This document shows, in pieces, positions 33,166 through 52,402 of a stretch of DNA of 64,000 nt. The notes under the pieces were generated by a model that saw only the letters and a program-made list of their open reading frames with translations, made no database searches and was not told the origin of the DNA. A program made the position numbers and the translations under genes. The number at the start of each line of letters is the position of its first letter. The stretch's first letter is position 1. Source of the DNA: Pseudomonadota bacterium (GTDB taxonomy: Bacteria > Desulfobacterota > UBA8473). The stretch lies in contig JBDRRJ010000008.1 of assembly GCA_043825855.1 (NCBI GenBank), forward strand, positions 1,551 to 65,550, read 5' to 3'.

Positions 33166-33254
33166 GAAAAAGAAACATGGTGAAATATATTATGCTGCTT
33201 ACTTAACTGGCAGTTAATGCTAATTATATCGTGGTTCAAATCTCTTATATATTT

Positions 33255-33479
33255 TTGAATATCCCTATCTGGCATGCCGACTCTTATGACATCGGCACTA
33301 ACTTATTTCTCAATCTCCCAACCGCCAATAAGGCAGTCCAAGATCCTGACTTCAATCCCCATGTTCTCTATTACTGACGCTATGTAACCCAATCCTATAG
33401 GAGGCATAGTGTTTTTAGCCAGCGGATGAGGTGTAGAAAAACACGTGGGAACCATCAGTAAAACTTTTCTTATCTTCAC
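33255..33479 (-). pseudogene. B12-binding radical SAM gene relic (N-terminal 58 codons joined to a few C-terminal codons)
   Basis: The minus-strand GTG ORF 33303-33479 encodes VKIRKVLLMVPTCFSTPHPLAKNTMPPIGLGYIASVIENMGIEVRILDCL..., a B12-binding domain start. Downstream, ..SACQIG.. shares the 14-mer TATCTGGCATGCCG with the relic at 37881-37894. Confidence 0.5.
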
Positions 33480-33585
33480 TAACCAATCTCCATATTGTTG
33501 CTAATGACCATTACCTGATTATGCATACACTTTTGCCGTTTACATCGCTAAACAAATACACGACGGTCAACTCCGTCATATACTC

Positions 33586-35373
33586 TCATTGCACAACCTG
33601 ATTCCATACAGCTTCATGAAACTCCTCATCGATTATATCTGGATCTGGTCTGATAACGCTTTTACTATGCTCAAATGTCAACGAATCACTTTCAGTAACT
33701 ATTCGTTGAGGGAGATTCATACCAAAAAACGGATCGACATCGATTCTTTCAGGGATATATTTATATACCGTAATACCATTCATCAGGCATTCAATCGCCG
33801 CCGTTGTCCCCACATGAATCGCCCATCCTACCTTATCAAACCATTCATCAAGGGGACCTTTGATAAAAATAAAATTATCTGGCAGAGTTCCTGCATATTT
33901 CCTGACAATTTTTTCCGGCATATCAGGATGGGGCTTTAACAAGAACTTTTTGTCCCCCCAAGGCCTCCTCTTCAGATAAAATATCAAGTCTAAAGTATAT
34001 GACAGGACAGGAGAGAATAAAACCAATATGCTTTGTTCCTTTTTATCATTTCTTACATCTCCTTCTTTTTTTTCGCTTTTACTATATCGGAGAGACCCAC
34101 CATTATAAATCGGGCAGGTAAAGCCGCTTTTTTTTAATACTCTAGCCCAGGTATCGCCATTTGCAACAATAATATCAGGCTCCGGGTGGATGCCTTTCTC
34201 ATTTTCTCCCAAAAAATAATTTAAAAGAAAACAGGGAACTACAGTATGTTGATAGGCTATCATTTTACTACTTGATTCTGCCTTTTGCATACCCATTATG
34301 GCCATTTTATCCCATGGCTGGTTTTCGAATGGATAGATTATTGCCTTACAATTAATATCTGTTTCTTTGAAAAAATTATAAAATCCATAGTATAAGGCTA
34401 TATAATAGCATAATTTGCCTTTTTCCTTTATCTTTTCATTTTCAAAAACAGGATGTAAATCAAATCCACAAAAGTCAGGAAGTGCTTTTGCCCATTTAAA
34501 CGACACTGAGTGAAAGAACGAGCTTATAATGTCCGCTAAACTGATAAATAACAGAGTAGGAATAATCTCGCCGCTACGGTAAATTTTGTCCATAAACCGA
34601 GGCGGTATTTCCGGTGAAATCACAAAAACTGTTCGTAGGCCTTTTGTTTCATAAAATGTCTTCAGTTTTCCAAGATATATATCGGTGAAGTGGCCATCAG
34701 CAAAAGAGCGATCCTCAACCCACGTATACATTAATATGCTGGGACTGCTCTTAAAAAGATCTCGTAGTTTTTTTTTGTAATTCACGCCGAACCATTTGTT
34801 CAGTAGCCACATATTTAGATATCTGATGAGAAAAAGGAGCATCCTTGTCCAGGAAAAAAATACTGTTTTTAGCGTATAGCCTATACAGTTTGCCACACTC
34901 TTCTCGATGAGTATAGCAGGAGAATCCAGATTATTGGCACACGCCTTGAGAAGAGGCGGGTGTTCGACTATAACTAATCGTTTCTTTACACCTTTATCTA
35001 TCCATTCCTTTAAAAGAGTCAGAAGGCAGATATTTAAAAAAAGATCTGTGGAAAGTGGATTTTTATAAGCAATGTTAGTCCCCCACCAGAAAGGCTGTTC
35101 CTGCTTCTTTCCAATTTCAGCGATCCAGTCTAAGAAGGGCTTTTTATTTTTTATAGTGATATCTGAGAGTTCTTCGGCGTAATAATACCTATTCCCCTCT
35201 CCCAACTTTTTTATTACATTCTCACGAAGACAGGCATCTGTACCAAAGAAGGTCCATTCCCATTCGTGGTTAACGACGAATTGTTTGTATTTGTTAAGCC
35301 GAGTTAGCGGTATTATGATGATGTCAAGATCTTGAGTCATCTTGCTTATCGGAAAGGGGAAATTACCATACAT
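33586..35373 (-). CDS. Large orphan surface-carbohydrate biosynthesis protein, GT-B/TagF-like or ulosonic-acid-transferase-like (HP motif)
   Basis: 595 aa. C-terminal ...KKFLLKPHPDMP...WAIHVGTTAAIECLMNGITVYKY. It has the same architecture as 42979..44840 and 46358..48271. Confidence 0.55.
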   Translation of the reverse strand: MYGNFPFPISKMTQDLDIIIIPLTRLNKYKQFVVNHEWEWTFFGTDACLRENVIKKLGEGNRYYYAEELSDITIKNKKPFLDWIAEIGKKQEQPFWWGTNIAYKNPLSTDLFLNICLLTLLKEWIDKGVKKRLVIVEHPPLLKACANNLDSPAILIEKSVANCIGYTLKTVFFSWTRMLLFLIRYLNMWLLNKWFGVNYKKKLRDLFKSSPSILMYTWVEDRSFADGHFTDIYLGKLKTFYETKGLRTVFVISPEIPPRFMDKIYRSGEIIPTLLFISLADIISSFFHSVSFKWAKALPDFCGFDLHPVFENEKIKEKGKLCYYIALYYGFYNFFKETDINCKAIIYPFENQPWDKMAIMGMQKAESSSKMIAYQHTVVPCFLLNYFLGENEKGIHPEPDIIVANGDTWARVLKKSGFTCPIYNGGSLRYSKSEKKEGDVRNDKKEQSILVLFSPVLSYTLDLIFYLKRRPWGDKKFLLKPHPDMPEKIVRKYAGTLPDNFIFIKGPLDEWFDKVGWAIHVGTTAAIECLMNGITVYKYIPERIDVDPFFGMNLPQRIVTESDSLTFEHSKSVIRPDPDIIDEEFHEAVWNQVVQ

Positions 35374-35396
35374 TTTTTCTACAGATACCTCCTAGA

Positions 35397-36053
35397 CTAC
35401 ATTCTGGTATCGTCTTCTATTTTCCCGATTTGTTCTTCCAGTTGCGTTAAATTTTCCATCATGTATTTGCTTAATGCCATCAAATGGAAATTCTCTGGTG
35501 TTATTCTTAATACGAAAGGAATCCCTGAATCCCTTGCCGCTTTCTTATCAGATTCCGCATCTCCAACAAAAACTGTTTCTGTTTTCTGTAAACCGTATTT
35601 CTCCATAATATTAGTAACGATCTCCGTTTTTGTTGAAGGAGTCCCGAATATTTCTTTAAAATACTTTTTAATGCCTCTATGGGTCATTATTTCATCCAAC
35701 TCATCACCAGGGGTTCCTGACGCTATAAAAAGCATATATTCCCGGTATTTTTTTTCTAAAAAATCTAATGCACCATCCACAAAAGGCGCTTCCTTGACCC
35801 CACTTAGCACGATTTTGGAAAACTGTCGGCCCAATTCAGCTTCAATCTCTTCGTTATAGGGCTTTTGTAAGATGTTCTCAAAATAATAGCGGAATTTTAC
35901 ATACCTTGATATACCCATGTTCTTAAGATGATACAATACTATCTCTTCGACCTTGTCTGGCCATCGGGAAAAGAGGTTTTTGAAGGCCTCGGTTTTTAAC
36001 TGCGCTGATTCGATAATCACCCCATCAAAATCAAAGATGACAGCCTTAATCAA
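35397..36053 (-). CDS. HAD-superfamily hydrolase, subfamily IA (phosphatase/beta-PGM-like)
   Basis: MIKAVIFDFDGVIIES (DxDG motif I) ...VFVGDAESD (motif IV). Confidence 0.85.
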   Translation of the reverse strand: MIKAVIFDFDGVIIESAQLKTEAFKNLFSRWPDKVEEIVLYHLKNMGISRYVKFRYYFENILQKPYNEEIEAELGRQFSKIVLSGVKEAPFVDGALDFLEKKYREYMLFIASGTPGDELDEIMTHRGIKKYFKEIFGTPSTKTEIVTNIMEKYGLQKTETVFVGDAESDKKAARDSGIPFVLRITPENFHLMALSKYMMENLTQLEEQIGKIEDDTRM

Positions 36054-36720
36054 CTAGCACTCCTATAACGGTACAGGGAGCACCATCAGCGTCGCGGATG
36101 AAAAGAGGTAAGACTATCACCTCCTGAAGACTGGCTGTTTCCGCCGGCACAAAGAGATCTTCGATGATGAGAAGCGACTTACCGCTGTCCTCACCAAGCA
36201 ATATACGATGCGTTTCTCTCCCCATATCCCGTCTTGCGGGAGAGGCTATCGAAATGCAATCGACGCCTATTGCCCGTAAGGCTGGCATATTGTTTTTCAT
36301 CCATCGTGCGGCATCAGGAGCAAGACAGGGATTTTTGTGGCAGTAGGTATCAGTATCATTTCCCCTGAAGCGGCTGAAACCGGTCCGTATGATGACCAGA
36401 TCCGCATTGCACTTATCGGATAATCTTTGCACGTCCTCGATACCTATGACCTCTTCCATGCCTTTCGGGCAATCGAAGATCAAGGGTTTTCTAAATATCA
36501 GTTCATCAACAGTATACCCGTCAATGCTCTTACCCAAATCCCAGAAATGCCTCGGCGCATCAACATGAGTGCCCGCATGGTTCGAAAGTGAGATAAAGAG
36601 GGTATTGCAAGAATCCCCTTTTTTAATCGTCTTGACCTTTTCGATGACTACGGGTTTCGTCCCCGGATAAAGGGGCATCCCTTCAGTGATAGTATATGAA
36701 AGCCTTATGTATCGTCTCAT
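36046..36720 (-). CDS. Cyclase-family (kynurenine-formamidase-like) metal hydrolase
   Basis: ...NHAGTHVDAPRHF... motif. The Met at 36720 avoids overlap with the upstream gene. Confidence 0.75.
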   Translation of the reverse strand: MRRYIRLSYTITEGMPLYPGTKPVVIEKVKTIKKGDSCNTLFISLSNHAGTHVDAPRHFWDLGKSIDGYTVDELIFRKPLIFDCPKGMEEVIGIEDVQRLSDKCNADLVIIRTGFSRFRGNDTDTYCHKNPCLAPDAARWMKNNMPALRAIGVDCISIASPARRDMGRETHRILLGEDSGKSLLIIEDLFVPAETASLQEVIVLPLFIRDADGAPCTVIGVLVD

Positions 36721-36724
36721 GCGC

Positions 36725-37657
36725 CTATTTGTCTTGGTATCCGTGATCGTCACCATCATCCACGATTAGCCCGTCGTATGTAGGCAGCGTGTTAATCTCC
36801 TTGTAAATGTTCTGAATACATTTAAGGATGCCCTGTCCAATGTCTAAATATGTTTTGCTGACAATCCTCTTCGCCAATTTGGGGGCAAACGTATAGGGGG
36901 TTATTTCATAGTGATATTTATTATCTATAGGCAAATATTGTATTTCCACTTTATCATCAAGCATTTCTTTGAGCATCATAAGCAGATCCTTGACCTTCAT
37001 TTGCTGGTACCCGGTGATGATTACATGCTGATTGATAAATTCGTCGTGAAGTATCTCGACGCTGTTCTTTGCGGCATCGAAGACGTGAATGTATTCGCGT
37101 ATCTCCTCACCGTCCCCTTCCCGGATGATCCTACCTGAAGTAATCGCTTCCTTGATCGTCCTGTAAATGAAGTTTCTCTGGTCAGCCCGCGGGCCATACA
37201 AAGAACCAAACCGTAAAATAGTATAAGGCAGGCCGTATACTTCGTAATAGTTTTCTATGATAAGCTCGCAGGCCTGCTTCGTGCTTCGGTAAAAAGAACC
37301 TGACTTGCTGTACACATACAGGGTACTGGCATACACGAACCGCTTAATCTTTGCCTTCCGACAAGCCTCCAGGAGCACCGTATTTCCAAGAACATTGATC
37401 CGGATGCTTTCCATAGGCTTCTGGCTAGCTTCATCAATATCGGCTATACCCGCGAAGTTATAGACGATGTCACAGTCTCTAACGGCCTTTCCCACCGCTT
37501 CCTGATCTAATATGTCCAGTACAACCATTTTCTGGCCATTGCGGAGGCAGGAGGACTTTTTGATATCACAGACCACAACGTCGTGTCCTGCATCTGTCAG
37601 TGCATCAGCCACATGACTGCCCAGAAATCCGGCTCCTCCAAAAACAGCGACTTTCAT
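36725..37657 (-). CDS. NAD-dependent epimerase/dehydratase (extended SDR)
   Basis: MKVAVFGGAGFLGSHVADAL ... YRSTKQACE (YxxxK). Confidence 0.88.
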   Translation of the reverse strand: MKVAVFGGAGFLGSHVADALTDAGHDVVVCDIKKSSCLRNGQKMVVLDILDQEAVGKAVRDCDIVYNFAGIADIDEASQKPMESIRINVLGNTVLLEACRKAKIKRFVYASTLYVYSKSGSFYRSTKQACELIIENYYEVYGLPYTILRFGSLYGPRADQRNFIYRTIKEAITSGRIIREGDGEEIREYIHVFDAAKNSVEILHDEFINQHVIITGYQQMKVKDLLMMLKEMLDDKVEIQYLPIDNKYHYEITPYTFAPKLAKRIVSKTYLDIGQGILKCIQNIYKEINTLPTYDGLIVDDGDDHGYQDK

Positions 37658-37718
37658 AGTTTTGCCCTTCCCAATATAGAATTTAAAAACAGTTCTATCA
37701 AATAATTATTACCCTTGC

Positions 37719-38469
37719 CTATTCAGGATTTTCCTCTCCCCATCGCTGTTCCCTGTAAATTTTAGCATATCTGTATAATATTTCATCTCCCTCTGGAGTG
37801 GAAAATTCCGCTTTCTCGATCATAGGCCATTCTGACTCATCAAACTCCACGTATAAGGGGAACGTCCTCATCATTCCATCTATCTGGCATGCCGTAAAAT
37901 GAGGCATACCTAGCATTGATTTGGAAGTAGTATGCACCGTAAGAGCCTGCGAATCAAGCCATCCTTCCCGTATCGCTTCGTCCCTCAGCGTCGTTCCTCG
38001 ATAAGGGGTAAAGATGCTCACGGTAATTGCATCATATCCTTTTATCTGTTTCACTAAGCGTATCGTATCGAAGACCATCTCCCTTGTTTCATAGGGAAAA
38101 CCAATAATGCAGTTTATGCTGTAACTAATTCCACTTTTATCGATGGTTTCGAAACACCTAATAATATTTCCATTAGATATTTTCCGGCCAAGTTTATTTG
38201 TGCGAAATTTTTCGTTACCCGATTCAATACCGAAAAAAGCGCGAAAAAGCCCCACATCTTTCAGCTTTTCAAGGACATCTGCCGTACAATGCTCTGGTCT
38301 GGTATTGAACCAGAAAGGTATCGATCTCTTTCTGCGGACGGGCAAAAAAATCGACCTCGTAGCCATCTTTCCGAAGTACCCAGGCAAAGATCGCAATAGA
38401 AAGAGGAGTTACTAACATCATGGGGATATTTGGATATACAAGCAGAATCCTGAAATCAAATCTCTTCAT
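37719..38469 (-). pseudogene. B12-binding radical SAM gene, internally deleted and frameshifted
   Basis: Frame a carries MKRFDFRILLVYPNIPMMLVTPLSIAIFAWVLRKDGYEVDFF (B12-domain start). Frame b carries ..IPFWFNTRPEHCTADVLEKLKDVGLFRAFFGIESGNEKF... (the post-core rSAM region). The CxxxCxxC core is missing, and the junction lies near a T7/A7 run at 38354-38360. Confidence 0.7.
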
Positions 38470-38495
38470 TTCTCGTTTCTCAGAGAGCGTATTTG

Positions 38496-39413
38496 TTATT
38501 CAAGCCCTTTCAGCAAATTCATAACCGACTGCCGTTCCATCTCAATCCTTGATTCTTTTGCGTATGAGCCAATGTGCGCTGTCAAGAGCACATTTTTCAG
38601 TTCCGTGAACGGCCCCTTGTAGGGCTCTTCCATAAAAACATCCAATGCTGCACCCGAAAGATGATCGTTTTTCAAAGCTTCGTAGAGAGCCTCTTCATCA
38701 ACAACCCCACCTCTCGATACATTCACCAACCAAGCCCCCCTTTTTATTTTACCAATTTCATTCCTGCCCAGCACTTGCTCCTGCGAGGAAACATGGATAG
38801 TCACAATATCGCTTATTCTCAGAAGAGAATCCATTTCAAGCCTGTCTATATGGGCACCGATTATTTCCGTTTCCGATGTTCCGGCAATTATATCGTAATA
38901 GCGTATAGCACATCCGAAAGGAATCAACAATTCGGCGACCTTTCTACCAATACGCCCAAATCCAACAATGCCGACGCTTTTACCATTTATGAGGTTGCCC
39001 ATGTGCTTGTGCCAAACCCCACTGCGTATTTCTCTGTCGGTCATTGTGATTCTCCGCAGCATGTCGAGCATCAGCCCTATAGTAAGTTCGGCGACCGCGA
39101 GAGTCGGAGCGTCTGGTGTATTAAAAACCTTTATTCCTTTCCGTTTGGCCGCTTCTAGATCAACATTATCCATCCCCGTACCGCAACGCGATATCACTCT
39201 CAATCTGGGAAGCCTACCCATCACCTCATCGTCAATCGTTTCCGTCCCTGCGATAATGCCAATTACATCGCAGTAAAGATCAGATATCTCCTCCTTTTTC
39301 AATTTGCGCCCATAAGGATTGAAGACCACTTCACAGCCTCTTTCAGCCAGTGGCTCAAGCACTGTTTTGTCATACTCACCAAAAGAGGTTGTTGTTATGG
39401 CTATTTTTTTCAT
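38496..39413 (-). CDS. D-isomer-specific 2-hydroxyacid dehydrogenase (SerA/GyaR-like)
   Basis: ...GIVGFGRIGRKVAE... NAD motif, and ...NVSRGGVVDEEAL...LDVF..EP. Confidence 0.9.
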   Translation of the reverse strand: MKKIAITTTSFGEYDKTVLEPLAERGCEVVFNPYGRKLKKEEISDLYCDVIGIIAGTETIDDEVMGRLPRLRVISRCGTGMDNVDLEAAKRKGIKVFNTPDAPTLAVAELTIGLMLDMLRRITMTDREIRSGVWHKHMGNLINGKSVGIVGFGRIGRKVAELLIPFGCAIRYYDIIAGTSETEIIGAHIDRLEMDSLLRISDIVTIHVSSQEQVLGRNEIGKIKRGAWLVNVSRGGVVDEEALYEALKNDHLSGAALDVFMEEPYKGPFTELKNVLLTAHIGSYAKESRIEMERQSVMNLLKGLE

Positions 39414-39423
39414 ATCTACCGCC

Positions 39424-40398
39424 TCATTTTTTCGAGCAGACTACCATCATATGCGAACTCAGGAGATTTTGTGCCACAAAGGCCTGCATATTTTCCTTAT
39501 CCTGCTCCGATGCGATCTGCAGGTAATTTCTCCAGAATCTGTCATGGATGAGATCAGAGTTGTTTTCCATGATACTAATGTCCAGTTTCCCAGGAGTGGT
39601 GATCTCGATGACCTTAAAGTCCAGACGTTTCAGCAATATCTGCACAGACTTTGGATTGAAGAAATTTAGATGGTGAGGAGGCGAGATGGATTTTGAGTTT
39701 TCCCACAATACTTGTATATCTATACCCATACCGCTTAAGGTGGTAAATATAAACAGGTCATTCTTCTGCATCAAGCCGTTAAGAGTGCCAAGAAAATCCG
39801 TGGGATCATGCAAATGTTCGAACAACTCGAAACTGACAAAAGCTTTAGTTTCTTTCGGGATAAGATCCGGTGATATATCTTCCAGAAACTGTTCCATGAC
39901 AGACAGTCCTTTATCCCTGCACACCTTCGCCAGATGCACAGATGGCTCAATGACAACAATATCAAGGTCCATAATCTTCTGTATTTCTTCTGCAAAAGTT
40001 CCGTATCCCCCGCCGATATCGAGTATCGTTTTCGCCTGTGAAAATCTTTCTACCTTTTCCTTAATCAGGCGGGCCTTTGGTTTCCAGAGCTTTTCCCGCC
40101 GCGCTGATTCTGTCTCCTTGTAAAAAGTGGTTGCCCAGTATCTCGTCGACGGCGAATCGGTATAATAATGGTCAAACGCTTCCTTTGCAGGTCTCGGACT
40201 GACAAACAGCGTCAGGCATTCGGAGCATTCTTCATAACTGAATCCCTTTTTATTGAACGCATAAACTCCCTTTGCCCCACAAGCGGGGCAGGATATATGT
40301 ATGCGAGGTGCATTCTCGAAATAAGTTGTAACATCCTGCTCAGCAAGTTTAAGATACTCGTTAAAAATGTTCTGTGGTCGTATTTCATTTTCTTTCAT
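39424..40398 (-). CDS. Class I SAM methyltransferase with N-terminal Cys4 zinc-ribbon
   Basis: CPACG...CSEC followed by ILDIGGGYGTFAEE motif I. This resembles the layout of sugar C-/O-methyltransferases. Confidence 0.75.
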   Translation of the reverse strand: MKENEIRPQNIFNEYLKLAEQDVTTYFENAPRIHISCPACGAKGVYAFNKKGFSYEECSECLTLFVSPRPAKEAFDHYYTDSPSTRYWATTFYKETESARREKLWKPKARLIKEKVERFSQAKTILDIGGGYGTFAEEIQKIMDLDIVVIEPSVHLAKVCRDKGLSVMEQFLEDISPDLIPKETKAFVSFELFEHLHDPTDFLGTLNGLMQKNDLFIFTTLSGMGIDIQVLWENSKSISPPHHLNFFNPKSVQILLKRLDFKVIEITTPGKLDISIMENNSDLIHDRFWRNYLQIASEQDKENMQAFVAQNLLSSHMMVVCSKK

Positions 40399-40410
40399 AT
40401 CAACGCAATC

Positions 40411-41232
40411 TTATCTTCTCCGTCCCCAGTCTTTATATAATTTGCTATAAGTGTTGTAAAGCGTGTCATTATTCATAATTTTTTCCACAACATAAAGATC
40501 ATCAAGTGTGTCAACCGATTTGGAATCAAATCTGGTTGGTATCATTTTTACCTTGAGACCGTTCTCCAGGATTCTCATCATATCAACGGATTCAATAATC
40601 TCGAGAGGCGTTTGAGGGGTCTCGTTGTATTCGAGCAGAAAGTCCCTTCTGAAAGGGATGATACAGACCTGTTTGTACATAGATACATCCTTTACACCTT
40701 TTTTCCTTGAAGGAATTGGTTCCCTTGAAAAATAAAGGGCATTGTTGAATTTATCGACAACCACTTTTACCTCGTTCGGGTCTTCGAACTCTTCAATGGT
40801 CGTTATTTTCCCAAGCAGGTTTGTTATCAGAATATTTGTATCGTCAATCATTGGCTGTACCGCTTCATCGATCATCTCGGGGAGGACCAGCGGCTCATCA
40901 CCCTGGATCATTACCATCAGATCTATTTTTTCACCTGTCTCCGCCTCTATTTTCAGCATGGCTTCGGCACACCGGTCACTCGCCCGTTCATGGGTATCCT
41001 TCGTCATGACTGCCTTGCCCCCGATAGAGTTAACATACTCGACAACTTCCTGGTCACATGTGGCTACATACACTGCCGATAATGATTTACTCATTACGCT
41101 CCGGTGATAAACATGCCCGATCATGGGCATCCCACAGATCTTCGCAAGAGGTTTCCCGGGAAACCGTGATGAAGCCATCCGAGCAGGAATAATACCTATA
41201 ATGTTTATCCCCTTATCCTTTGATTTATTCAT
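40411..41232 (-). CDS. KdsB-like cytidylyltransferase (CMP-ulosonic acid synthetase family, CTP_transf_3)
   Basis: IIGIIPARMASSRFPGKPLAKICGMPMIGHVYHRS ... QGDEPL ... SVDTLDDL is the KdsB-type pattern. Confidence 0.8.
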   Translation of the reverse strand: MNKSKDKGINIIGIIPARMASSRFPGKPLAKICGMPMIGHVYHRSVMSKSLSAVYVATCDQEVVEYVNSIGGKAVMTKDTHERASDRCAEAMLKIEAETGEKIDLMVMIQGDEPLVLPEMIDEAVQPMIDDTNILITNLLGKITTIEEFEDPNEVKVVVDKFNNALYFSREPIPSRKKGVKDVSMYKQVCIIPFRRDFLLEYNETPQTPLEIIESVDMMRILENGLKVKMIPTRFDSKSVDTLDDLYVVEKIMNNDTLYNTYSKLYKDWGRRR

Positions 41233-42205
41233 TTCCAAGCTCCACATCTGTAAAGTAATATTTCGTTGAGTTCAAATATTTAAACGGTCTATATAATAGC
41301 TTAGCCAAACGGCCTTTTCCTTTAAAGCTCATGACAAAACCTTTTTTATATATAGCTTTATATAAAAGCATACTTTCAGATAATTTAAACAATTTATCAT
41401 CCGTGGCTTTTTCGCATAAATAAAGGGCATAATCTGAGATTCCATAAATTTGACATAAGGAAATCGCCTTCATTATTTTAGCTTTTTTGTAATCATTTTT
41501 TTGATTCATCATTACATCCATAAGAGCTTCATATGTTTTAAAATACAAAGCATCTGCAAAAATCAACTGCCCTTTATCTATTCCGCTATTAATGCCCGCT
41601 TTTCTTTTAAAATAATATTTTTTTAAATCAAACAAAGAAAAACCTTTTTTTCTCAAAAAAATATCAACATCTGAAAACAACGGTTGATTATTATAGAGTT
41701 GAGCAAATTCCACCTCTACTTCTATTCCGAATATAAGGTTATCTATAATTGCTGATGCACCCCTTAAAATGTCCAGTTCAAATCCCTGCGCATCGAGTTT
41801 TATGAAATCTGGGTCTTCAACACCATGACGGGTTAGGAGTTCCATAGTTAATTGTTTAGCATGGAATGATATTTCCCCCACGACATCCAGTCTTTGAGCA
41901 TCCGGGAATTGCTTCAAAAAGTCATGATTGGGCTGGTAAAAGGAAGAACACTCTTGTTTTCTTGTTAAAAAGAATTTTATATCTCGGTCGGAGTCGGCCA
42001 GAGCCTCGTTTATATATACAATGGATTCTGTGGATTGCAGTTTTCTGAAAGCACGTACATCCGGCTCAAACCCCAACACTTTTAACAATCCTTTTGCCTT
42101 TTTAAATCTTTCTGGGAAATCGCCACTTGCCCCTATATCGATCATAGTAATGGGATTTTTTTCAAGTATACTCCTTAAAAGGGGATGATTAAAAATATCG
42201 GCCAT
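41225..42205 (-). CDS. FkbM-family methyltransferase
   Basis: MIDIGASGDFPERF ... FIKLDAQGFELDILRGA. Confidence 0.7.
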   Translation of the reverse strand: MADIFNHPLLRSILEKNPITMIDIGASGDFPERFKKAKGLLKVLGFEPDVRAFRKLQSTESIVYINEALADSDRDIKFFLTRKQECSSFYQPNHDFLKQFPDAQRLDVVGEISFHAKQLTMELLTRHGVEDPDFIKLDAQGFELDILRGASAIIDNLIFGIEVEVEFAQLYNNQPLFSDVDIFLRKKGFSLFDLKKYYFKRKAGINSGIDKGQLIFADALYFKTYEALMDVMMNQKNDYKKAKIMKAISLCQIYGISDYALYLCEKATDDKLFKLSESMLLYKAIYKKGFVMSFKGKGRLAKLLYRPFKYLNSTKYYFTDVELGNE

Positions 42206-42208
42206 TTC

Positions 42209-42982
42209 TCACCTCAAATTATGTCCATTTTTTATACTGTCTAAAGTTTCTCTACATTTACAGCCAAGATAAAGCGTGTCAAGACCAACAGCAAGAAAAG
42301 AATACCCCTTGCCGATATAAACCTTCGTCTTTTCCGGATCCGGCTGAACGATGTGAAATCCCTTGGGTTTCTTTAATGCGTCACATATCGTTTCGTATCT
42401 TTTCAGGGCCTCCTTTACTTCTGGCCTTTCAAATTCACCGGGCCACCCGAGAGAACCGGATAAGTCATATGGCCCGATAATGGAACCATCTACGCCGGGC
42501 GTGCTCAATATTGCTTCCAGATTTTCTATGGCGCTAATATGTTCAATCTGCACAATGACGATGCTATTTTCAGCAACCCATTTCTTGTATTCTTCGAATC
42601 CAAACCCGTATTTTTGCGCACGTGCCAGACCAACGCCCCGTTTACCCACGGGCGGGTACTTGACTGCGGCAACAGCCGCTTCGGCATCAGCTTTCGTATT
42701 GACCATGGGAACGATGACACCATGAGCACCGGCATCCATAACACGTTTTATGAGATTAGCGTTATTTTCGCCCACTCTGACAAAGGGAGAAACGCCACTT
42801 AATTCTATAGCACGTATCATTTCCTGTGCCTGACTGATCGTTGTGGCACTGTGCTCCATATCCACAGTCAGCCAATCGAATCCAGCTTGTACCATAATCT
42901 CGGCAATAGCAGGATGGGCAAGTGTAATCCATGAACCAACGGTCAGTTCCCTGTTCATTATTTTCTTATTCAAGCCATTCAT
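42209..42982 (-). CDS. HpcH/HpaI-family class II (metal-dependent) pyruvate aldolase
   Basis: GSWITLAHPAIAEIMVQAGFDWLTVDMEHS...VRV...MDAGAHGVIVPMVNT...YPPVGKRG...VQIEH is the HpaI/YfaU/GarL signature. Confidence 0.85.
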   Translation of the reverse strand: MNGLNKKIMNRELTVGSWITLAHPAIAEIMVQAGFDWLTVDMEHSATTISQAQEMIRAIELSGVSPFVRVGENNANLIKRVMDAGAHGVIVPMVNTKADAEAAVAAVKYPPVGKRGVGLARAQKYGFGFEEYKKWVAENSIVIVQIEHISAIENLEAILSTPGVDGSIIGPYDLSGSLGWPGEFERPEVKEALKRYETICDALKKPKGFHIVQPDPEKTKVYIGKGYSFLAVGLDTLYLGCKCRETLDSIKNGHNLR

Positions 42983-43578
42983 CGCCTTCCCCCTTGCAAA
43001 GTTCTTTTTAGTACAGCTAATGCCCTTTGACTGCTCTTGCCGTCATCGATATGCGTACCGTACAATTTTATATACTCCCTGTTATCACAGTCGGCAGGAT
43101 ACTCTCCCGTTTGCAGATATACTTCCAGTCTATTCATCAAAGCTTCAGCATGGTCCGCACATACAGCCCTTTTCATAAGAAGGTGCAGATGTACCCTCGG
43201 TGGTGATATAACAGAGGTCAATACAAAAACCGGGAGCCGCGTTGCTATCGCCTGCAGCAATGTCGTTGTCGGTGAATCTATCAAAACGACGTCATGGCTG
43301 TGCAAGAGTTGGGTAAAAATTGGGTTTCGTATAATATTGATGCGTTCAATGCCTTTGAGGGATGCAACCCATGGCGGGTCTTCATCAAGCACATCTGCAC
43401 CAGGATGGAGTTTTAATGTCAACGATATTTTTTTATTCTCTCTGCTTATTTTCTTCATCCTCTCGACAATAATCATCTGTTCTTTGTAATATATTCGATC
43501 GCTGAAGGGCGGATTAAAGCCGCAATACCAGCCGTTGCGATAATAATTTGTAATAACGTATAAAATGCGTATCGTCAT
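42979..43578 (-). CDS. Orphan protein equivalent to the C-terminal half of the large GT-B-like orphans (HP motif)
   Basis: ...ISLTLKLHPGAD...HDVVLIDSPTTTLLQAIATRLPVFVL. An ATGA overlap joins it to the upstream ORF. Confidence 0.55.
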   Translation of the reverse strand: MTIRILYVITNYYRNGWYCGFNPPFSDRIYYKEQMIIVERMKKISRENKKISLTLKLHPGADVLDEDPPWVASLKGIERINIIRNPIFTQLLHSHDVVLIDSPTTTLLQAIATRLPVFVLTSVISPPRVHLHLLMKRAVCADHAEALMNRLEVYLQTGEYPADCDNREYIKLYGTHIDDGKSSQRALAVLKRTLQGGRR

Positions 43579-44840
43579 CCCCTCGTCTCCATGCTAAGAT
43601 TGTCAAGAATTGCACTGCCTATTGATTCTATGACAATATTCTCAGGCATACCAGAGAGCTTGTACGCATTTTTCACGCCATTGCCAAAGGTGAGCAATAT
43701 GTTAGTTCCGGTTTTATCAAAAAGATCATGCCGCTGTGTTATATCCTTTTCATACCATACCGCACCATACTGCCATGATAAAACAGGAATGGATTTTGCG
43801 ACAAAAAACTGTTTTATAATATAGTTTAAGTAGTCCGGTGTTGACATACTCAGTACTGCAATCGGCATTTTATTGAAACAGATTTTTTCCATCTTTTCTA
43901 TTATTGCCCGTGCCACAGAAGGCCCCTTTTCTATTATCCATCGTATTCTGTCTCCAAGTATATCAAAAAAATCAATACCTTCATGAACCATATTGGCAAA
44001 GAAATATAGGCATAGTTCATTGCCATCTATTTCTGACACGTTATCCTCTGTATATATGTTGCCAAGGATAGATTCGTTCAAAAAAAGAATCGATATATTA
44101 GAGCTGATGAGAATTCGTAAAATATCCGGCCATTCATAGGGATTATTCATCACCATAATATGTTGCTTTTTATTTGTCCCGATGAGATTGAGTATGTTCT
44201 GCAGCATTTTTTGTTGATAACTTATCACCACACTTCTTAGCAAGATATTGGAGTTCACGACTTTTCTCAATACGTTCTTGATGCTATCAACTTTTTTATG
44301 GCGTGTTTCAGTATGTAAATTCTTATTCGGGTCCAACACAGGAATCACACTGTCAGCCCATTCAGACAATAACAGCAATCTGCCCCACAACGTTTCATGC
44401 TTGCCAAAGCCAAGGCCGAATAACGTCCACGGCTGAAGTGGCGTCATATGGGTATAAATTTTATCTTTACATACGTCAAATTTAGTTAAAATCTTTCTTA
44501 TCCACAACGCACGGCTGAGAACGGCATCGAAAACCATGCCGAGCTGCCAGAGGTGGAAAAGAAAAGGTCGGATATTCCACTTTTTCAGAAAAGGATCTAT
44601 TTCTTGCAATCTATCATCTATCTTTCCACATACATTATGCAACTGTTCAAACTGCACCTTGCATGCGCCCTCTATTTCATTCAAACCTACATAGTCTTCC
44701 GGAATGGTATATGGAAGGTTCTTTCCAGCAAGATAATGCATTGCTGATGGGCCAAGCGCCAACCAGTCAGCATCAGCACAGTCGGTGTTTTTAAGAAAAT
44801 GCTCGACCTGGTATGCATGTTCCACAAAAAAAGTATTCAT
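43575..44840 (-). CDS. Orphan protein equivalent to the N-terminal two-thirds of the large GT-B-like orphans
   Basis: 421 aa. ..VLSWQYGAVW... lies at the position matching AYQHTVV in 33586..35373. Confidence 0.5.
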   Translation of the reverse strand: MNTFFVEHAYQVEHFLKNTDCADADWLALGPSAMHYLAGKNLPYTIPEDYVGLNEIEGACKVQFEQLHNVCGKIDDRLQEIDPFLKKWNIRPFLFHLWQLGMVFDAVLSRALWIRKILTKFDVCKDKIYTHMTPLQPWTLFGLGFGKHETLWGRLLLLSEWADSVIPVLDPNKNLHTETRHKKVDSIKNVLRKVVNSNILLRSVVISYQQKMLQNILNLIGTNKKQHIMVMNNPYEWPDILRILISSNISILFLNESILGNIYTEDNVSEIDGNELCLYFFANMVHEGIDFFDILGDRIRWIIEKGPSVARAIIEKMEKICFNKMPIAVLSMSTPDYLNYIIKQFFVAKSIPVLSWQYGAVWYEKDITQRHDLFDKTGTNILLTFGNGVKNAYKLSGMPENIVIESIGSAILDNLSMETRG

Positions 44841-46357
44841 GACGTACGGCCAACTCTTACCTTGGCAGGACTTAATTCCTTAGCATAATCATCAGGTACA
44901 AAAAACAGTAAAAACAGCAGGAAAAACATCAACCAGTAAAATGTATAATGATAGAATAGAAACCAAAATCCTATTGCTATCAATATAGAGTAAGCGGATG
45001 TTTTAATCAGGAACAGTTTCGGGTGTACTGCTGCTATTTTCTCCCCGGTCTTACCTGTCAGCTTAAAACTTACAAAACACAGGTAAACAAAGTATCCAAT
45101 AAGTATGACTCCCCAAATGCTGTATTCACAGATAAAGTTGACATAAAAATTATGTGGGCCCGTGACTTGGCCGTAGGATACTATCTCATGATACCAAGAG
45201 CTCATATCGCCCGCTTGTACATAATCGATAAAATATTTTGGGATAGAAGAAGATGCCATCGTTGGATCTACCCGTCCTGGTCCTACTCCAACGGGGAAAG
45301 ATGCAATGAACACCTCTAATCCTCTGAGGTATGATCCTAAACGTTCAACCCAACTACTCGTAAAGGTTTGAAAGTAATCGGGACGCACAAACATAAAAAA
45401 CGCCAAACTTTCTAAATAGTCATCCAACATTTTGAAAACCAAAGTCACTCCCCAGACAAAAAGACCCATCAATAGTATGCCGAATTTGAGTCGCACTCTT
45501 TTTCGTAACATTGAAAATATTCCGATCACTATAAAGGTTGACACTATAGGCGTTCTCTGGAATGTTGCAAGCGTTGGTAGAAAAAAGAGTGGGATAAGAA
45601 ACAAATAAATAATGGTTTTACGACTACTTACAAAATATAGTATGAATCCTGTGGCGCCAAAACAAACTAATGCAAGAGTCACAAAATCAAAGAAAAAGAT
45701 GCTGTGATATCTTCCCGATTCATGAAACACGTAATTAGTTAAGGGTAAAGGAAGTTTCAAATAAAAATATAAAAGTGATTCTACAGCAAGTGCCGTCGCT
45801 GATGCAATAATGATTAGAAAGATTTTTTCTGCTTCTTCAATTCGTCTGACAAACGTTGCACACCCATATAAAAAAATGAGACCAAATACCATCGGTGCAT
45901 TCCAAACAAGCTCTTCGGGAACAATTTCTATATTAGTCAGATAATCCCCGCCAAACGCCCTGATCAATTCCAAAAGAAACGACAGAATAATAACGAAAAA
46001 CACAAGATAGCAGAAATAGTTCAATTTGCGGTGTATCGGCGGGAATCTTTTTTTAAAGCGTAGAATATTCAGACATATGGTCAACGCAGCCACAGTCTGC
46101 AAGATTGTGCACAAGGAAATCCCGCGCAACTCCTCAATCGAAAATAATACAAAGTTATTGCCACCTTTTGGGAAAAAAAGAGTTATAAAAAGAAACCCAT
46201 ATAAAGAATATAGTGGCTTTTTAAGGACTAATCCGAATAAGATAGCATACAGGACTGTAAAGAAAATTATAAATATCAAACCATTTCGGTCTTGTACCAC
46301 CAGCGAGATCATATAAAATAAGTAAAATTGTAGTAATGCGACAAGACCGATAATCAT
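44837..46357 (-). CDS. wzy: O-antigen polymerase/ligase-family membrane protein (Wzy_C-type)
   Basis: 506 aa with at least 10 TM segments and a large loop, ending in ...GPHNFYVNFICEYSIWGVILIG, which matches the Wzy_C HN.y...E.G motif. Confidence 0.7.
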   Translation of the reverse strand: MIIGLVALLQFYLFYMISLVVQDRNGLIFIIFFTVLYAILFGLVLKKPLYSLYGFLFITLFFPKGGNNFVLFSIEELRGISLCTILQTVAALTICLNILRFKKRFPPIHRKLNYFCYLVFFVIILSFLLELIRAFGGDYLTNIEIVPEELVWNAPMVFGLIFLYGCATFVRRIEEAEKIFLIIIASATALAVESLLYFYLKLPLPLTNYVFHESGRYHSIFFFDFVTLALVCFGATGFILYFVSSRKTIIYLFLIPLFFLPTLATFQRTPIVSTFIVIGIFSMLRKRVRLKFGILLMGLFVWGVTLVFKMLDDYLESLAFFMFVRPDYFQTFTSSWVERLGSYLRGLEVFIASFPVGVGPGRVDPTMASSSIPKYFIDYVQAGDMSSWYHEIVSYGQVTGPHNFYVNFICEYSIWGVILIGYFVYLCFVSFKLTGKTGEKIAAVHPKLFLIKTSAYSILIAIGFWFLFYHYTFYWLMFFLLFLLFFVPDDYAKELSPAKVRVGRTS

Positions 46358-48271
46358 TTATACATTCCCTGTCAAGATGCAATTTATACGTTCGAGCGCT
46401 CTGCCATCCCTGAAGGGATCGAGGCCTTTCAATACGCCCGCGATATTTTCAGCGTATATTTCGTAATCATTGACTGCATTTTTGAAAAGGACCGCAAGTT
46501 CATCATAATTTCCCGCTATCAAATCAGGGATTTCGCTATATGCTTGTCCACCGTATTTCAGCTCATTATAATAAATTACCCGCTTCTTAAACATCAACGC
46601 CTCGAAGCCCGGGGTTGTGAATCCAATGGCTATGATAATATCCGATGTGCAAAGAAGATCTATGTATTCGTGACGCAACCTATCTTCGAACCTGAGGTTG
46701 CCCTTTGTTTGCCGGTATATTTCCATGAAAGCTTCGCTGGCAAGCATAATATCCGTATATTCAGGTTCCTTATTTTTTATCACAAAGTCTATATCTGGGT
46801 TATCTACCGCAAGTCTGGCACAGTTAATTATAAAGGAAAGCGCATAGCCCAGGGAATAATGATGCCGGGGGCTGATATCTCCCGGGAAGATGCAGACTTG
46901 AATCCTGTCCGATCCTGACGCATTTTGCATTTTTCGATCTTCCTGCATCAGATAGTCCAGGTATATGCATCCTGTTATTGTGCATTGACGGATAAATCTT
47001 GTTGTAGTTCCCATCATCCCATACCAAACCCGGCCCCAGGCAAAATGCAAATCAAAACTGTCAAAAACGTATTCATAGTTTTTCGAGTGAACCGCCCGTG
47101 TCTGACAACCAACGCTCCTGATGCCGTTCTTTCTACACAACCCGGTAATAATGCCGCTGTTATGCCGAAGACTGCTGTGACCGTTTGGGAAAGTCAAATA
47201 TATAAAATTGTCAGCACTATAGCGATAAAAAAGAGGATAAAAGTTCAAGTACTCTTTTAAAGCCTTTATCATAACATCAGCAACAACTGTGTTATTGGTT
47301 GTAAAAGCTTTTCCCATGATTTTAAATGCGTGGAGAATGTACTCTTGTAAAATTACCGGAGGATAGGAAAGTGTGTCGAGCAATTGTATCTCATATCCTT
47401 TGTGTCGAACGTCTGAAAGTGTTTTTGTAATTTTGTATCCAATACCTTCCAGTATCCTTTTTTGTTCATTCGTTATGAAAAAGAAAATGTCTTCTTTGTG
47501 TATGCTTTTCCCGTCAACCCAGCAATCAGGATCATAACAGGTATTATTGAGTCTTCTCGGATCTATAAACTCTGTAATTATTTTATAATGTTTCTTGTCA
47601 TTTATTTTCCAGCTTATACCTCTTTTAAATATCCCCAATCCAACACGTATTATTTTAGGAATGAGTGAAAGCACAAAAAAAACATTCCTGGCTGTTCTGC
47701 ACCAGTTGGGCCATTTAAAAAAGTCAAATCTTGCATGCAGAGCATTTCGCTTAATAACATCGAGCCACTCTTCAGGCCAGCGGCAATCCCAGACCGCAAC
47801 ACATCTTGCACTGTAACCAATACTCGCACAGCAGGAGATGCTGGCAACCAACTGTTTGAATATTTTGCAATCCGCGATCTGTTTTACCGCATAAGACAAA
47901 GCCGGTTCTTTGCCAAGCAGTTTTTCCAGAATAGAAAACCAATGGTCATTTTCAATGAGGGGAATAAGTTCCTCCGATATGACAGATACCCATTCCTGTG
48001 CGCCTATATGAAAATCACTATAGCCTGCGACATCATCGCCTTGTTTTACCTGAATTAGCGTAATACCGGCAAACCACGAGAGAACCGCCTCTATCGATTT
48101 CGGAGATATTCCGAATATTTTTACGATCCCCCTCAGGTAACGGGGGAAGATGTCGTAGTAAAAAAAAGTGTTGCTGTTTTTAAAAGACCATGAAACGATT
48201 AGCAGACCGACAACAGACAGCTCTGGCATGCAGATATGTGTTAGAGTTTTTAAATCATTGTCGTTTTTCAT
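46358..48271 (-). CDS. Large orphan surface-carbohydrate biosynthesis protein (third member, HP motif degenerate)
   Basis: 637 aa. C-terminal ...DFVIKNKEPEY...SDIIIAIGFTTPGFEALMFKKRVIYY parallels the other two orphans. Confidence 0.5.
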   Translation of the reverse strand: MKNDNDLKTLTHICMPELSVVGLLIVSWSFKNSNTFFYYDIFPRYLRGIVKIFGISPKSIEAVLSWFAGITLIQVKQGDDVAGYSDFHIGAQEWVSVISEELIPLIENDHWFSILEKLLGKEPALSYAVKQIADCKIFKQLVASISCCASIGYSARCVAVWDCRWPEEWLDVIKRNALHARFDFFKWPNWCRTARNVFFVLSLIPKIIRVGLGIFKRGISWKINDKKHYKIITEFIDPRRLNNTCYDPDCWVDGKSIHKEDIFFFITNEQKRILEGIGYKITKTLSDVRHKGYEIQLLDTLSYPPVILQEYILHAFKIMGKAFTTNNTVVADVMIKALKEYLNFYPLFYRYSADNFIYLTFPNGHSSLRHNSGIITGLCRKNGIRSVGCQTRAVHSKNYEYVFDSFDLHFAWGRVWYGMMGTTTRFIRQCTITGCIYLDYLMQEDRKMQNASGSDRIQVCIFPGDISPRHHYSLGYALSFIINCARLAVDNPDIDFVIKNKEPEYTDIMLASEAFMEIYRQTKGNLRFEDRLRHEYIDLLCTSDIIIAIGFTTPGFEALMFKKRVIYYNELKYGGQAYSEIPDLIAGNYDELAVLFKNAVNDYEIYAENIAGVLKGLDPFRDGRALERINCILTGNV

Positions 48272-51697: not shown

Positions 51698-52390
51698 TTA
51701 ATCATTCAACAAAAAGGCTCTCATCAAGACCTCACACATCTTAAGGTCTTCCATGGAGTCAACTTCAAACATTTTCCAGAGCTCCATTTCTGTCATTCCA
51801 ATCTTACCCCCAAGCCTATTGTTGTATTGCTTCAATATCAACGGTTTAAAAAGATAAAAAGACCCATTTTCTATATATTGTTTAGGTCTTTCCTGACGAT
51901 GGCCCCGGTTCCTGTAATCATAGTTCATACTTCTCAACATCCCGTCCGACATTTTTTCCCAGAAGAACAAGTCTTCCACCACGCTACAGGAGAACATTGA
52001 ATCATACTTCTGTTCCTGAAAGTTACGTAGGCCTTGCTCTATATCCTGCGATTTCCTCAATGGCGAAGTCACTTGAGGGGCGATAACAATGTCAACGTTT
52101 CCTGTTTTATTTTCTATGATTTCAAGGGCGTGAAGCCAGCCAGATTCGGATGTTGCAAAATCCCCCGAAAGATCGACCGGCCTCTGTATAATCTCTGTGC
52201 CGCAAGCTTCACTTATAGACAGGATTTCTTTGCTATCCGAACTCACCCATATAGAATTAATTCCCTTTATTTGTTGTAGCTGTTCAATTGTCCAGACAAT
52301 TAATGGCTTTCCACAAAAATTAATGATGTTTTTCTCTGGGATCCCTTTGGAGCCTCCTCTTGCTAGAATGATTGCAACAATATTTGTCAT
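51698..52390 (-). CDS. neuA: Acylneuraminate (nonulosonate) cytidylyltransferase
   Basis: VAIILARGGSKGIPEKNIINFCGKPLIVWTIEQ is the NeuA/CTP_transf_3 N-terminus. Confidence 0.88.
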   Translation of the reverse strand: MTNIVAIILARGGSKGIPEKNIINFCGKPLIVWTIEQLQQIKGINSIWVSSDSKEILSISEACGTEIIQRPVDLSGDFATSESGWLHALEIIENKTGNVDIVIAPQVTSPLRKSQDIEQGLRNFQEQKYDSMFSCSVVEDLFFWEKMSDGMLRSMNYDYRNRGHRQERPKQYIENGSFYLFKPLILKQYNNRLGGKIGMTEMELWKMFEVDSMEDLKMCEVLMRAFLLND

Positions 52391-52402
52391 ATTAAACTCT
52401 CT

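Follow-up and report, generated by a model that had tools for sequence, protein, structure and literature searches.

Which enzymes transfer the acidic sugars in a surface-polysaccharide locus that encodes two cytidine monophosphate (CMP)-sugar synthetases and few recognizable glycosyltransferases (GTs)? The question is raised by the window, the stretch of 64,000 nucleotides of contig JBDRRJ010000008.1 analyzed here (GenBank assembly GCA_043825855.1; 2.4 Mb, 36 contigs, ~40% GC), which holds one long surface-polysaccharide locus on the minus strand. An earlier note, made from the letters alone, had counted two CMP-sugar synthetases and only three conventional GT domains. Both counts were confirmed: the synthetases are the CTP_transf_3 genes 51698..52390 and 40411..41247, and the GT domains are GT2 and GT4 in the fusion 27800..29920 and GT4 in 22023..23198. 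The note had also singled out three large proteins, namely P0001 (33586..35373, 595 residues), a protein divided into P0002 (43575..44840, 421 residues) and P0003 (42979..43578, 199 residues), and P0004 (46358..48271, 637 residues). All four open reading frames (ORFs) were found on the minus strand with these coordinates and lengths. The three proteins represent three separate, very old families. Here, we propose that they are TagF-like transferases of the GT-B fold that probably serve the two CMP-ulosonates of the locus. To our knowledge, bacterial ulosonic-acid transferases have been described for only a handful of cases, which are Maf, the Tannerella proteins of NF046086, KpsS1/GT118, and the β-linked 3-deoxy-d-manno-octulosonate (Kdo) families. 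The locus and its syntenic copies offer three candidate transferase families beside two unusual CMP-sugar pathways.

Family relationships and fold

As the earlier note had judged by eye, the four proteins are without a match to any Pfam GT family. When the three were compared pairwise by BLASTP, no significant similarity emerged. In a collection of 5.8 billion proteins, each has a family of its own, whose members are labeled hypothetical nearly throughout, and each family is single-copy in the genome, with no paralogs elsewhere in it. Family alignments were made for the split enzyme with its fused homologs (A1, 28 members), for P0001 (A2, 34 members), and for P0004 (A3, 28 members). Profile comparison by hhalign gave weak but consistent matches for all three pairs: A2–A3 (E 3.9e-5, probability 70%, 211 columns), A1–A3 (E 7.5e-4, 25%, 247 columns), and A1–A2 (E 1e-3, 21%, 271 columns). 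The matches are collinear, and the three motif pairs of the earlier note share columns in every comparison, in agreement with the common layout that it had proposed.

These proteins, labeled orphans in the earlier note, are not orphans in the strict sense, although the family of P0002/P0003 is uncatalogued. P0004 and all its homologs have a precomputed match to PF27878 (PFTS_polysacc, hereafter PFTS), and P0001 is a sister of the TIGR04326 family. The match of P0001 to TIGR04326 reaches 56.6 bits (cut-off 250) and covers residues 343–541 only, and all 34 A2 members match below the cut-off (best E 4e-26); 19 of them also match TIGR04396 and one NF046086. P0004 scores 36.2 bits against TIGR04417 (cut-off 100), a family matched by 26 of the 28 A3 members, besides TIGR04396 (11 members) and NF046086 (four). 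P0002 and P0003 seem to belong to a family of ~630 residues distantly related to LIC12162/TIGR04331: 16 of the 28 A1 members match TIGR04331 (best E 5e-7), two match TIGR04396, and six match NF046086, and PF27859 gives only a faint match on two members. The window proteins themselves reach at most ~25 bits against TIGR04331 (cut-off 225; P0003, E 0.23). P0003 matches NF046086 (BFO_1060) with 30.8 bits (E 1.6e-7), at profile positions 203–364 of 365 only, and P0004 with 14.8 bits. With scores this far under the curated cut-offs, the window proteins count as relatives of these families and not as members, P0004 with its PF27878 match being the exception. TIGR04326 (LIC13510), TIGR04331/PF27859, TIGR04417/PF27878, and TIGR04396 belong to the same superfamily, have ~520–600 residues, and occur in the same kind of locus. 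The literature on these catalogued "surface carbohydrate biosynthesis" families is essentially absent and holds no assayed member.

A Pfam scan of the 90 family members gave weak matches to DUF6716 (a putative GT) for 18 A2 members and to Glyphos_transf (PF04464) for three of the 28 A3 members (best 9.1e-5), and no match for A1. No window protein reaches the Pfam threshold of Glyphos_transf. Sequence and profile searches of the Protein Data Bank (PDB) with all three alignments gave no credible match. An exhaustive profile search with A1 retrieved 1446 representatives at 50% identity (E ≤ 1e-3), 346 of them with E ≤ 1e-30.

The GT-B-like fold was found in both families that were modeled with AlphaFold2. 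The models of P0004 (mean predicted local distance difference test score [pLDDT] 89.8, predicted template modeling score [pTM] 0.90) and of P0008, a fused A1 homolog of P0002 and P0003 (pLDDT 85.6, pTM 0.87), were compared with the PDB by Foldseek. P0004 gave 78 matches at E ≤ 1e-3, and the best 50 were all of the GT-B type, including SPINDLY, uridine diphosphate (UDP)-N-acetylglucosamine (GlcNAc) 2-epimerases, TagF (3l7k, E 7.7e-7), MurG, and others. P0008 gave 148 matches at E ≤ 1e-3, with GT-B structures among the best 50; the first 44 were UDP-GlcNAc 2-epimerases, with E values down to 1.8e-10. P0001 is linked to GT-B by its profile.

A kinship with sialyltransferases or KpsC/KpsS, also raised earlier, was not borne out. 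These families were absent from the best 50 Foldseek matches of either model, and no Pfam or NCBIfam match to the sialyltransferase and β-Kdo families GT52, GT80, GT99, GT107, and GT118 was detected. The window proteins share with the GT52, GT80, GT42, and GT38 sialyltransferases and with the retaining β-Kdo or pseudaminic acid transferases GT99 WbbB, GT107 KpsC/KpsS, GT118 KpsS1, and GT140 KrkA a presumed CMP-ulosonic acid donor. The N domain is reduced in GT99 and GT107, whereas it is enlarged in the window proteins.

Correspondence with the TagF active site

Every motif quoted in the earlier note was found in its stated place. In P0001, these are AYQHTVV at 373–379 (core Y-Q-H, 374–376), LLKPHPDMP at 478–486 (K-P-H-P-D, 480–484), and VGTTAAIEC... 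at 521–537 (GTTAA.E, 522–528), and a further core, YPFENQPW.K, lies at 347–356. P0002 has SWQYGAV at 355–361 (W-Q-Y-G, 356–359), and P0003 has TLKLHPGAD at 54–62 (K-L-H-P, 56–59) and DSPTTTLLQ... at 101–120 (D-S-P-T-T-T, 101–106). P0004 has CQTRAVH at 389–395 (CQTR, 389–392), VIKNKEPEY at 497–505 (K-N-K-E-P, 499–503), and GFTTPGFEAL... at 550–568 (GFTTPG.E, 550–557). In the predicted models, the motifs sit directly after Rossmann-domain β-strands (E360-363, E482-487, and E529-532 of P0008; E385-389, E495-499, and E545-549 of P0004), the place of the active-site residues in GT-B enzymes.

The lead to TagF given in the earlier note proved right at the residue level for the motif positions, of which P0001 alone keeps both histidines. 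True TIGR04396, Epimerase_2, and Glyphos_transf protein sets were taken from genomes of the same phylum and compared with the three families by hhalign. The probabilities for the three sets, in this order, were 93.6, 0.2, and 78% for A2, 10, 4.2, and 17.7% for A1, and 36, 24.5, and 30% for A3. The cytidine diphosphate-alditol phosphotransferases of the TagF/TarL/Cps3D type (PF04464; PDB ID: 3L7I) have the GT-B fold. Their motifs are W-H-G (H444) in the N domain, [RK]-x-H in the C domain (H584), and D-x-S-S with a helix behind it, and the window proteins have the same motif order. Real Glyphos_transf proteins carry QLWHG, KLHP, and DYSS. The TagF sequences of the PDB read IQTWHG and LLRMHY in the wild type, IQTWNG in the H444N mutant, and LLRMAY in 3l7m; because the mutant sequences differ at these places, the mutated histidines are the motif histidines H444 and H584. 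The hhalign register and the mutant sequences together gave the mapping. H444 corresponds to H376 of P0001 (Y-Q-H), Y358 of P0002 (W-Q-Y-G), and T391 of P0004 (C-Q-T-R). H584 corresponds to H482 of P0001 (K-P-H-P), H58 of P0003 (K-L-H-P), and K501 of P0004 (K-N-K-E-P). The D-x-S-S loop is represented by G-T-T-A-A in P0001, D-S-P-T-T-T in P0003, and F-T-T-P-G in P0004. Thus, [WY]-Q-H and K-x-H-P match H444 and H584, respectively.

The expected conservation of the HP residues in homologs holds in part. All A2 members keep H482, and in 32 of 34 the Y-Q-H or C-H-x triplet contains a His. Among 138 diverse A1 members, the W-Q-H-G position is His in 132 and Tyr, as in the window, in only four, and at the K-L-H-P position Lys is kept in 135, with His in 85 (62%) and Tyr in 17; K-L-Y-P, with Tyr for His, occurs in the closest split relatives of the window. 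A3 has Thr at the H444-equivalent and Lys at the H584-equivalent, both histidines being absent family-wide, and its invariant residues are Q390, T391, R392, K499, K501, T552, P554, and E557. The loss of HP that had been ascribed to P0004 is therefore not specific to this member, because the whole PFTS family has K-x-K-E-P there. Nor is HP diagnostic of sialic acid and Kdo transferases: it occurs in a GT-B-like C domain in several of them (PMC12887879), and UDP-GlcNAc 2-epimerases share the register (PvHPr). HP is a hallmark of the whole GT-B branch including the 2-epimerases; it is not strictly required, nor is it diagnostic of a CMP-sugar donor.

The window proteins also differ from TagF-type enzymes. 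They carry a helical and Rossmann N-terminal extension of ~230–330 residues, their [ST][ST] loop is P-T-T-T, T-T-A-A, or T-T-P-G, and they are encoded in a Wzx/Wzy heteropolysaccharide locus, not in one for teichoic acid synthesis. TagF-type chemistry is not applicable unchanged to two of the three, because P0002 has Tyr for H444 and P0004 is free of both histidines. If the three form the ulosonate-transferring module considered below, the His-to-Tyr change and the His-free PFTS family would point to a mechanism different from that of TagF.

Synteny and proposed function

The neighboring genes were named from Pfam and NCBIfam matches. The gene for P0004 is preceded by that of a Wzx-type flippase (48294..49856, minus strand; Polysacc_synt match), which is directly upstream of the PFTS gene also in the loci L001, L002, L004, and L012. 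A Wzy-type polymerase of 506 residues (44837..46357, minus strand; Wzy_C match, 1e-9) lies between the PFTS and split genes. Downstream of P0003 is an HpcH/HpaI class II pyruvate aldolase (42209..42982, minus strand), which opens the second ulosonate module; this module includes a KdsB-type CMP-3-deoxy-ulosonate synthetase (40411..41247, minus strand; CTP_transf_3, NF009905 with 312.8 bits against a cut-off of 255). The first module, of the CMP-nonulosonate type, consists of a NeuB-like synthase and a PseF-like cytidylyltransferase (51698..53251, minus strand), both below their NCBIfam equivalog cut-offs; its CTP_transf_3 gene (51698..52390) was assigned by Pfam.

The three families travel together and are syntenic across phyla. 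The PFTS gene lies upstream of the A1 gene, in many cases separated from it by Wzy, in L001, L002, L004, L006, L007, L008 (Solirubrobacterales), L012, and L053, and the PFTS/Wzy/A1 order of the window is repeated in L001, L004, and L053. In L001, L003, L004, and L010 (Peptococcaceae), the A2 gene is within 10 kb. The A1 gene is followed by a CTP_transf_3 gene, in most cases together with an HpcH aldolase, in L001, L004, L005, and L012; in L003, the CTP_transf_3 gene is a few genes away. L004 resembles the window locus almost gene for gene, but its A1 gene is fused. The syntenic copies are from metagenome-assembled genomes of Desulfobaccales, Solirubrobacterales, Peptococcaceae, and Elusimicrobia. 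The locus search of genome contigs used one peptide pattern and gave six loci, a number that is no measure of prevalence.

The Tannerella forsythia members of NF046086 are the only experimentally tested relatives. They were proven by knockout and mass spectrometry to transfer pseudaminic or legionaminic acid (Pse/Leg) derivatives. Their genes lie in nonulosonate loci, and the proteins contain a TagB-type domain as well as an HP motif (PMC5420450). The C-terminal CMP-binding half of Tanf_01245/TFUB4_00887 is homologous to that of the window proteins, and members of all three families match NF046086. Unlike the window proteins, the Tannerella enzymes are single chains of ~365–445 residues that act in protein O-glycosylation, and the N-terminal halves are unrelated at the sequence level. 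In TagF chemistry and in CMP-sugar transfer alike, CMP is the leaving group. The earlier proposal that the three proteins are candidates for transfer of the acidic sugars is partly supported, by the GT-B fold of the two families modeled, the weak mutual profile similarity, the TagF motifs, and the match of P0003 to NF046086. We infer the use of CMP-sugar donors from synteny and remote homology.

Here, we propose a mechanism for TagF-like GT-B transferases serving the CMP-ulosonates. The three cytoplasmic, membrane-proximal enzymes would work with the GT2 and GT4 enzymes on an undecaprenyl-diphosphate-linked repeat unit, which would be flipped by Wzx and then polymerized by Wzy. Most probably, they would transfer the NeuB/PseF-type product and the aldolase/KdsB-type 3-deoxy-ulosonate, or glycosylate those residues. 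The C domain would bind CMP, and its phosphate would be contacted by the His of K-x-H-P, which is equivalent to H584, and by the [DG]-x-[PT]-T-T loop, located where a helix has its N terminus. The N domain would bind the acceptor, and the His of [WY]-Q-H (the H444 equivalent) may function as the general base. From adjacency, one may guess that the split enzyme handles the aldolase/KdsB-type product and the PFTS protein the NeuB-type product. It is also possible, though we hold it doubtful, that the PFTS protein, the A1 enzyme, and the TIGR04326-like protein constitute a conserved cross-phylum module that installs two non-canonical CMP-activated ulosonic acids. If so, ulosonate transferase families that have long been missing, on a par with new CAZy families, would have come to light.

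Several observations weigh against the assignment as CMP-ulosonate transferases. P0002 has Tyr at the position of the putative catalytic base, and P0004 has neither histidine. Three proteins stand against two CMP-sugar modules. The mutual profile similarity is weak (probabilities of 21–70%), and every NCBIfam match is far below its curated cut-off (NF046086: 30.8 against 200 bits). The GT-B models cover the families of P0004 and the split enzyme, not that of P0001. In structure, the split family comes closest to UDP-GlcNAc 2-epimerases rather than to transferases, and no member of the three families has been assayed.

Alternative donors and roles

The alternative that survives best keeps the proteins as TagF-like GT-B transferases and changes the donor. 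They would use cytidine diphosphate (CDP)-glycerol or CDP-ribitol in phosphotransfer, or UDP- or guanosine diphosphate-sugars, and the CMP-ulosonates would be moved by something else or by one of the three. The catalytic motif pair is indeed that of TagF, a CDP-glycerol phosphotransferase, and three A3 members match Glyphos_transf itself. The excess of proteins over CMP-sugar modules fits this possibility, as do the many aminotransferase and methyltransferase genes for other sugars in the locus. However, no genes for CDP-alditol synthesis (IspD/TarI/TagD type) were found among the locus proteins scanned, the A1 gene adjoins a CTP_transf_3 gene across phyla, and the families are linked to the nonulosonate transferases of NF046086. 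We consider this alternative unlikely.

A second alternative concerns P0004, which might be a non-catalytic or differently catalytic partner, such as a scaffold or an acceptor-presenting subunit for Wzy or the A1 enzyme. The family-wide Thr and Lys in place of the two histidines would be explained, and the gene is followed directly by Wzy and/or A1 in nearly all cases. Residues 197–215 of P0004 also form a strongly hydrophobic helix (Kyte–Doolittle mean 2.04 over 19 residues), falling inside helix H189-217 of the model, which may anchor the protein in the membrane or lie at the membrane interface. On the other side, the A3 residues listed above as invariant occupy the same cleft positions, which argues for a conserved active site in the PFTS family. 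Inverting sialyltransferases, moreover, use Asp or other bases. We regard a partner role as rather improbable.

Quite improbable is the view that one or more of the proteins, mostly those of A3 and A1, are GT-B-fold nucleotide-sugar 2-epimerases or hydrolases of the NeuC/PseG kind that would fill in early steps missing from the non-canonical ulosonate pathways. UDP-GlcNAc 2-epimerases (WecB/MnaA/NeuC) occupy the top 44 Foldseek matches of the fused A1 model, with TM scores of ~0.6 on the target, and rank high for P0004 too; they share the register of P-x-H-P and D-S-G-G..E. The NeuB module lacks NeuC and PseG, and the hhalign probability of A3 with Epimerase_2 (24.5%) is close to that with Glyphos_transf (30%). 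The structural matches do not discriminate, however. Small Epimerase_2 and Glyphos_transf alignments (loci L034–L052) were related with 96% probability by hhalign (E 2.7e-9) and share the motif register of H-P and D-S-x-x..E, so that structural matches to 2-epimerases are uninformative for TagF-like proteins. None of the 90 family members matches Pfam Epimerase_2, and the hhalign probability of A2 with Epimerase_2 is 0.2%. In the weak A1–Epimerase_2 alignment, the catalytic carboxylates are not kept: the Glu of HVEAG is paired with Gln, and I-T-Q stands opposite the PEE motif. A size of ~600 residues, twice that of the epimerases, and a position beside Wzx/Wzy fit transferases. The genome has a real Epimerase_2 gene elsewhere, the sole strong one (WecB/NeuC type), on contig C30 (22669–23709), away from the locus. 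If the proteins were epimerases, the reading of several "surface carbohydrate biosynthesis" families would need correction.

The split enzyme

The A1 enzyme of the window is unusual in its family in being encoded by two genes. The N-half and C-half genes overlap by ATGA at positions 43575..43578 (junction GGATGACG), as the earlier note had described, and the C-half frame is -1 relative to the N-half frame. The Wzy/N-half and C-half/aldolase junctions are likewise ATGA and the PFTS/Wzy junction is TAAATG, so that the chain P0004–Wzy–P0002–P0003–aldolase is tightly coupled.

P0002 and P0003 align end to end with single-chain homologs of ~630 residues, and the identity between P0003 and the matching C-terminal portion of P0008 is 61%. 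The cut maps to the variable interdomain linker, loop 421–433 of P0008, just before strand E434-439; the N domain of the P0008 model ends with E410-413 and H417-420. P0002 holds the helical extension and the N Rossmann domain, and the C Rossmann domain makes up P0003 from its first strand (RILYVI) on. Because the cut falls between the N and C domains, P0002 is the acceptor-side domain and P0003 the nucleotide-sugar-binding domain. A cut at the interdomain boundary, conservation of both halves, and the ATGA overlap, taken from the genes and the model, agree with a two-subunit GT-B organization.

Homologs are fused elsewhere, a point that the earlier note had asked to check: 137 of the 141 sequences in the tree are fused forms. 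The same cut was found in four assemblies, namely the window, L012/L013 and L002 (~70% identity), and L001 (49% identity), and the four split forms make one clade (support 1.0) nested among the fused forms. The split thus reflects a single derived gene fission, since the split forms are monophyletic and nested. In this clade, the fission goes with the loss of the H444-equivalent histidine. The ratios of non-synonymous to synonymous changes (dN/dS) were 0.162/0.678 and 0.094/0.426 for the N half and 0.097/0.598 and 0.318/1.99 for the C half, that is, 0.16–0.24 for both halves, indicating purifying selection, which makes decay unlikely. This clean, selected fission at a domain boundary is a new element among these enzymes. 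A decaying pseudogene of a frameshifted transferase, in place of a working two-subunit enzyme, is hardly credible. In its favor, the frames are offset by one base, the His of W-Q-H-G, nearly invariant elsewhere, is gone from P0002, a relative (L053) has an ordinary disruptive frameshift in the same gene, and the C half begins with CTG instead of ATG in the relatives of 70% identity. Against it, the four assemblies share the cut site across 49–70% identity, the split forms are monophyletic, the two halves are intact and under selection, and the break lies exactly in the linker with its own start codon.

The C half starts with ATGA in the window and L001 and with CTGA in the ~70% relatives. In the latter (L012:5925-5945, L002:9252-9272, and L013), CTG takes the place of the window's ATG (junction GGGGCTGACA), the C-half frame has no ATG, GTG, or TTG after the preceding stop, and gene callers begin 33 codons later. 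The skipped first codons are nevertheless conserved as protein, with five synonymous and two non-synonymous changes relative to the window, so that a non-canonical (re)initiation seems to be required in these relatives. The simplest explanation is that translation reinitiates at a near-cognate codon. Programmed -1 frameshifting, by which the split gene would be read as a single protein, was also considered and rejected. Slippage would be possible at the window junction (G GGA TGA), but L001 (CAA TGA) lacks a slippery codon in the P site and offers an ATG of its own, and termination–reinitiation therefore fits all cases.

A similar division is known from other GT-B enzymes. Alg13/Alg14 is a eukaryotic split MurG-like UDP-GlcNAc transferase, and Cps14F/Cps14G is a bacterial two-gene GT-B enzyme; in both, the division of the GT-B fold runs along the interdomain boundary and leaves one subunit on the acceptor or membrane side and another that binds the nucleotide sugar, as in the window. 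Alg13/Alg14 differs in using UDP-sugars and in its GT family (GT1/GT28 clan), which is unrelated, and the fission in the window is recent, confined to one small clade, and leaves the halves still translationally coupled. The split enzyme would consist of two subunits as in Alg14/Alg13, with coupling by termination and reinitiation at ATGA ensuring their 1:1 supply. If true, the window would hold the first example of a heterodimer among TagF-like or CMP-sugar transferases. The natural fission at the domain boundary is a ready-made system for studying separate donor and acceptor halves, donor specificity, and domain swaps.

In L053 (5279–7194), a homolog in the PFTS–Wzy–A1 order is broken into 323 and 293 residues, with ~25 residues lost. 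This break looks like a frameshift inside a long helix, in a pseudogene or through an assembly indel, unlike the split in the window. Several A1 representatives of ~310 residues start near profile positions 323–337. A second, independent fission near profile position 320–340, considered because of such ~310-residue matches, was rejected on the one case checked, L053, which is an ordinary frameshift.

Other genes of the locus

The locus also encodes one initiating Bac_transf protein, beside the GT2+GT4 fusion (27800..29920) and the further GT4 protein (22023..23198), both on the minus strand. A class IV aminotransferase, a small radical S-adenosylmethionine (SAM)/SPASM protein, methyltransferases, a 2-hydroxyacid dehydrogenase, an epimerase, a cyclase, a HAD phosphatase, and DegT aminotransferases are encoded as well. 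The HpaI/GarL-type aldolase lies near the KdsB-type cytidylyltransferase within 40411..42982 (minus strand), which suggests a NeuB/KdsA-independent route to a CMP-3-deoxy-2-ulosonic acid. The pair is kept in L001, L003, L004, and L012.

Within the operon, a minus-strand ORF of 367 residues (24781..25884) has no Pfam match at E ≤ 1e-4. The operon is tightly packed except for a gap of ~420 bp (33166..33585) between P0001 and a DegT gene, which has numerous stops in the single frame tried. The minus-strand radical SAM ORF 37719..38396 (225 residues) matches the C-terminal part of the Pfam domain only. Its syntenic counterpart in L001 is a B12-binding radical SAM enzyme of 503 residues, and the window copy looks truncated.

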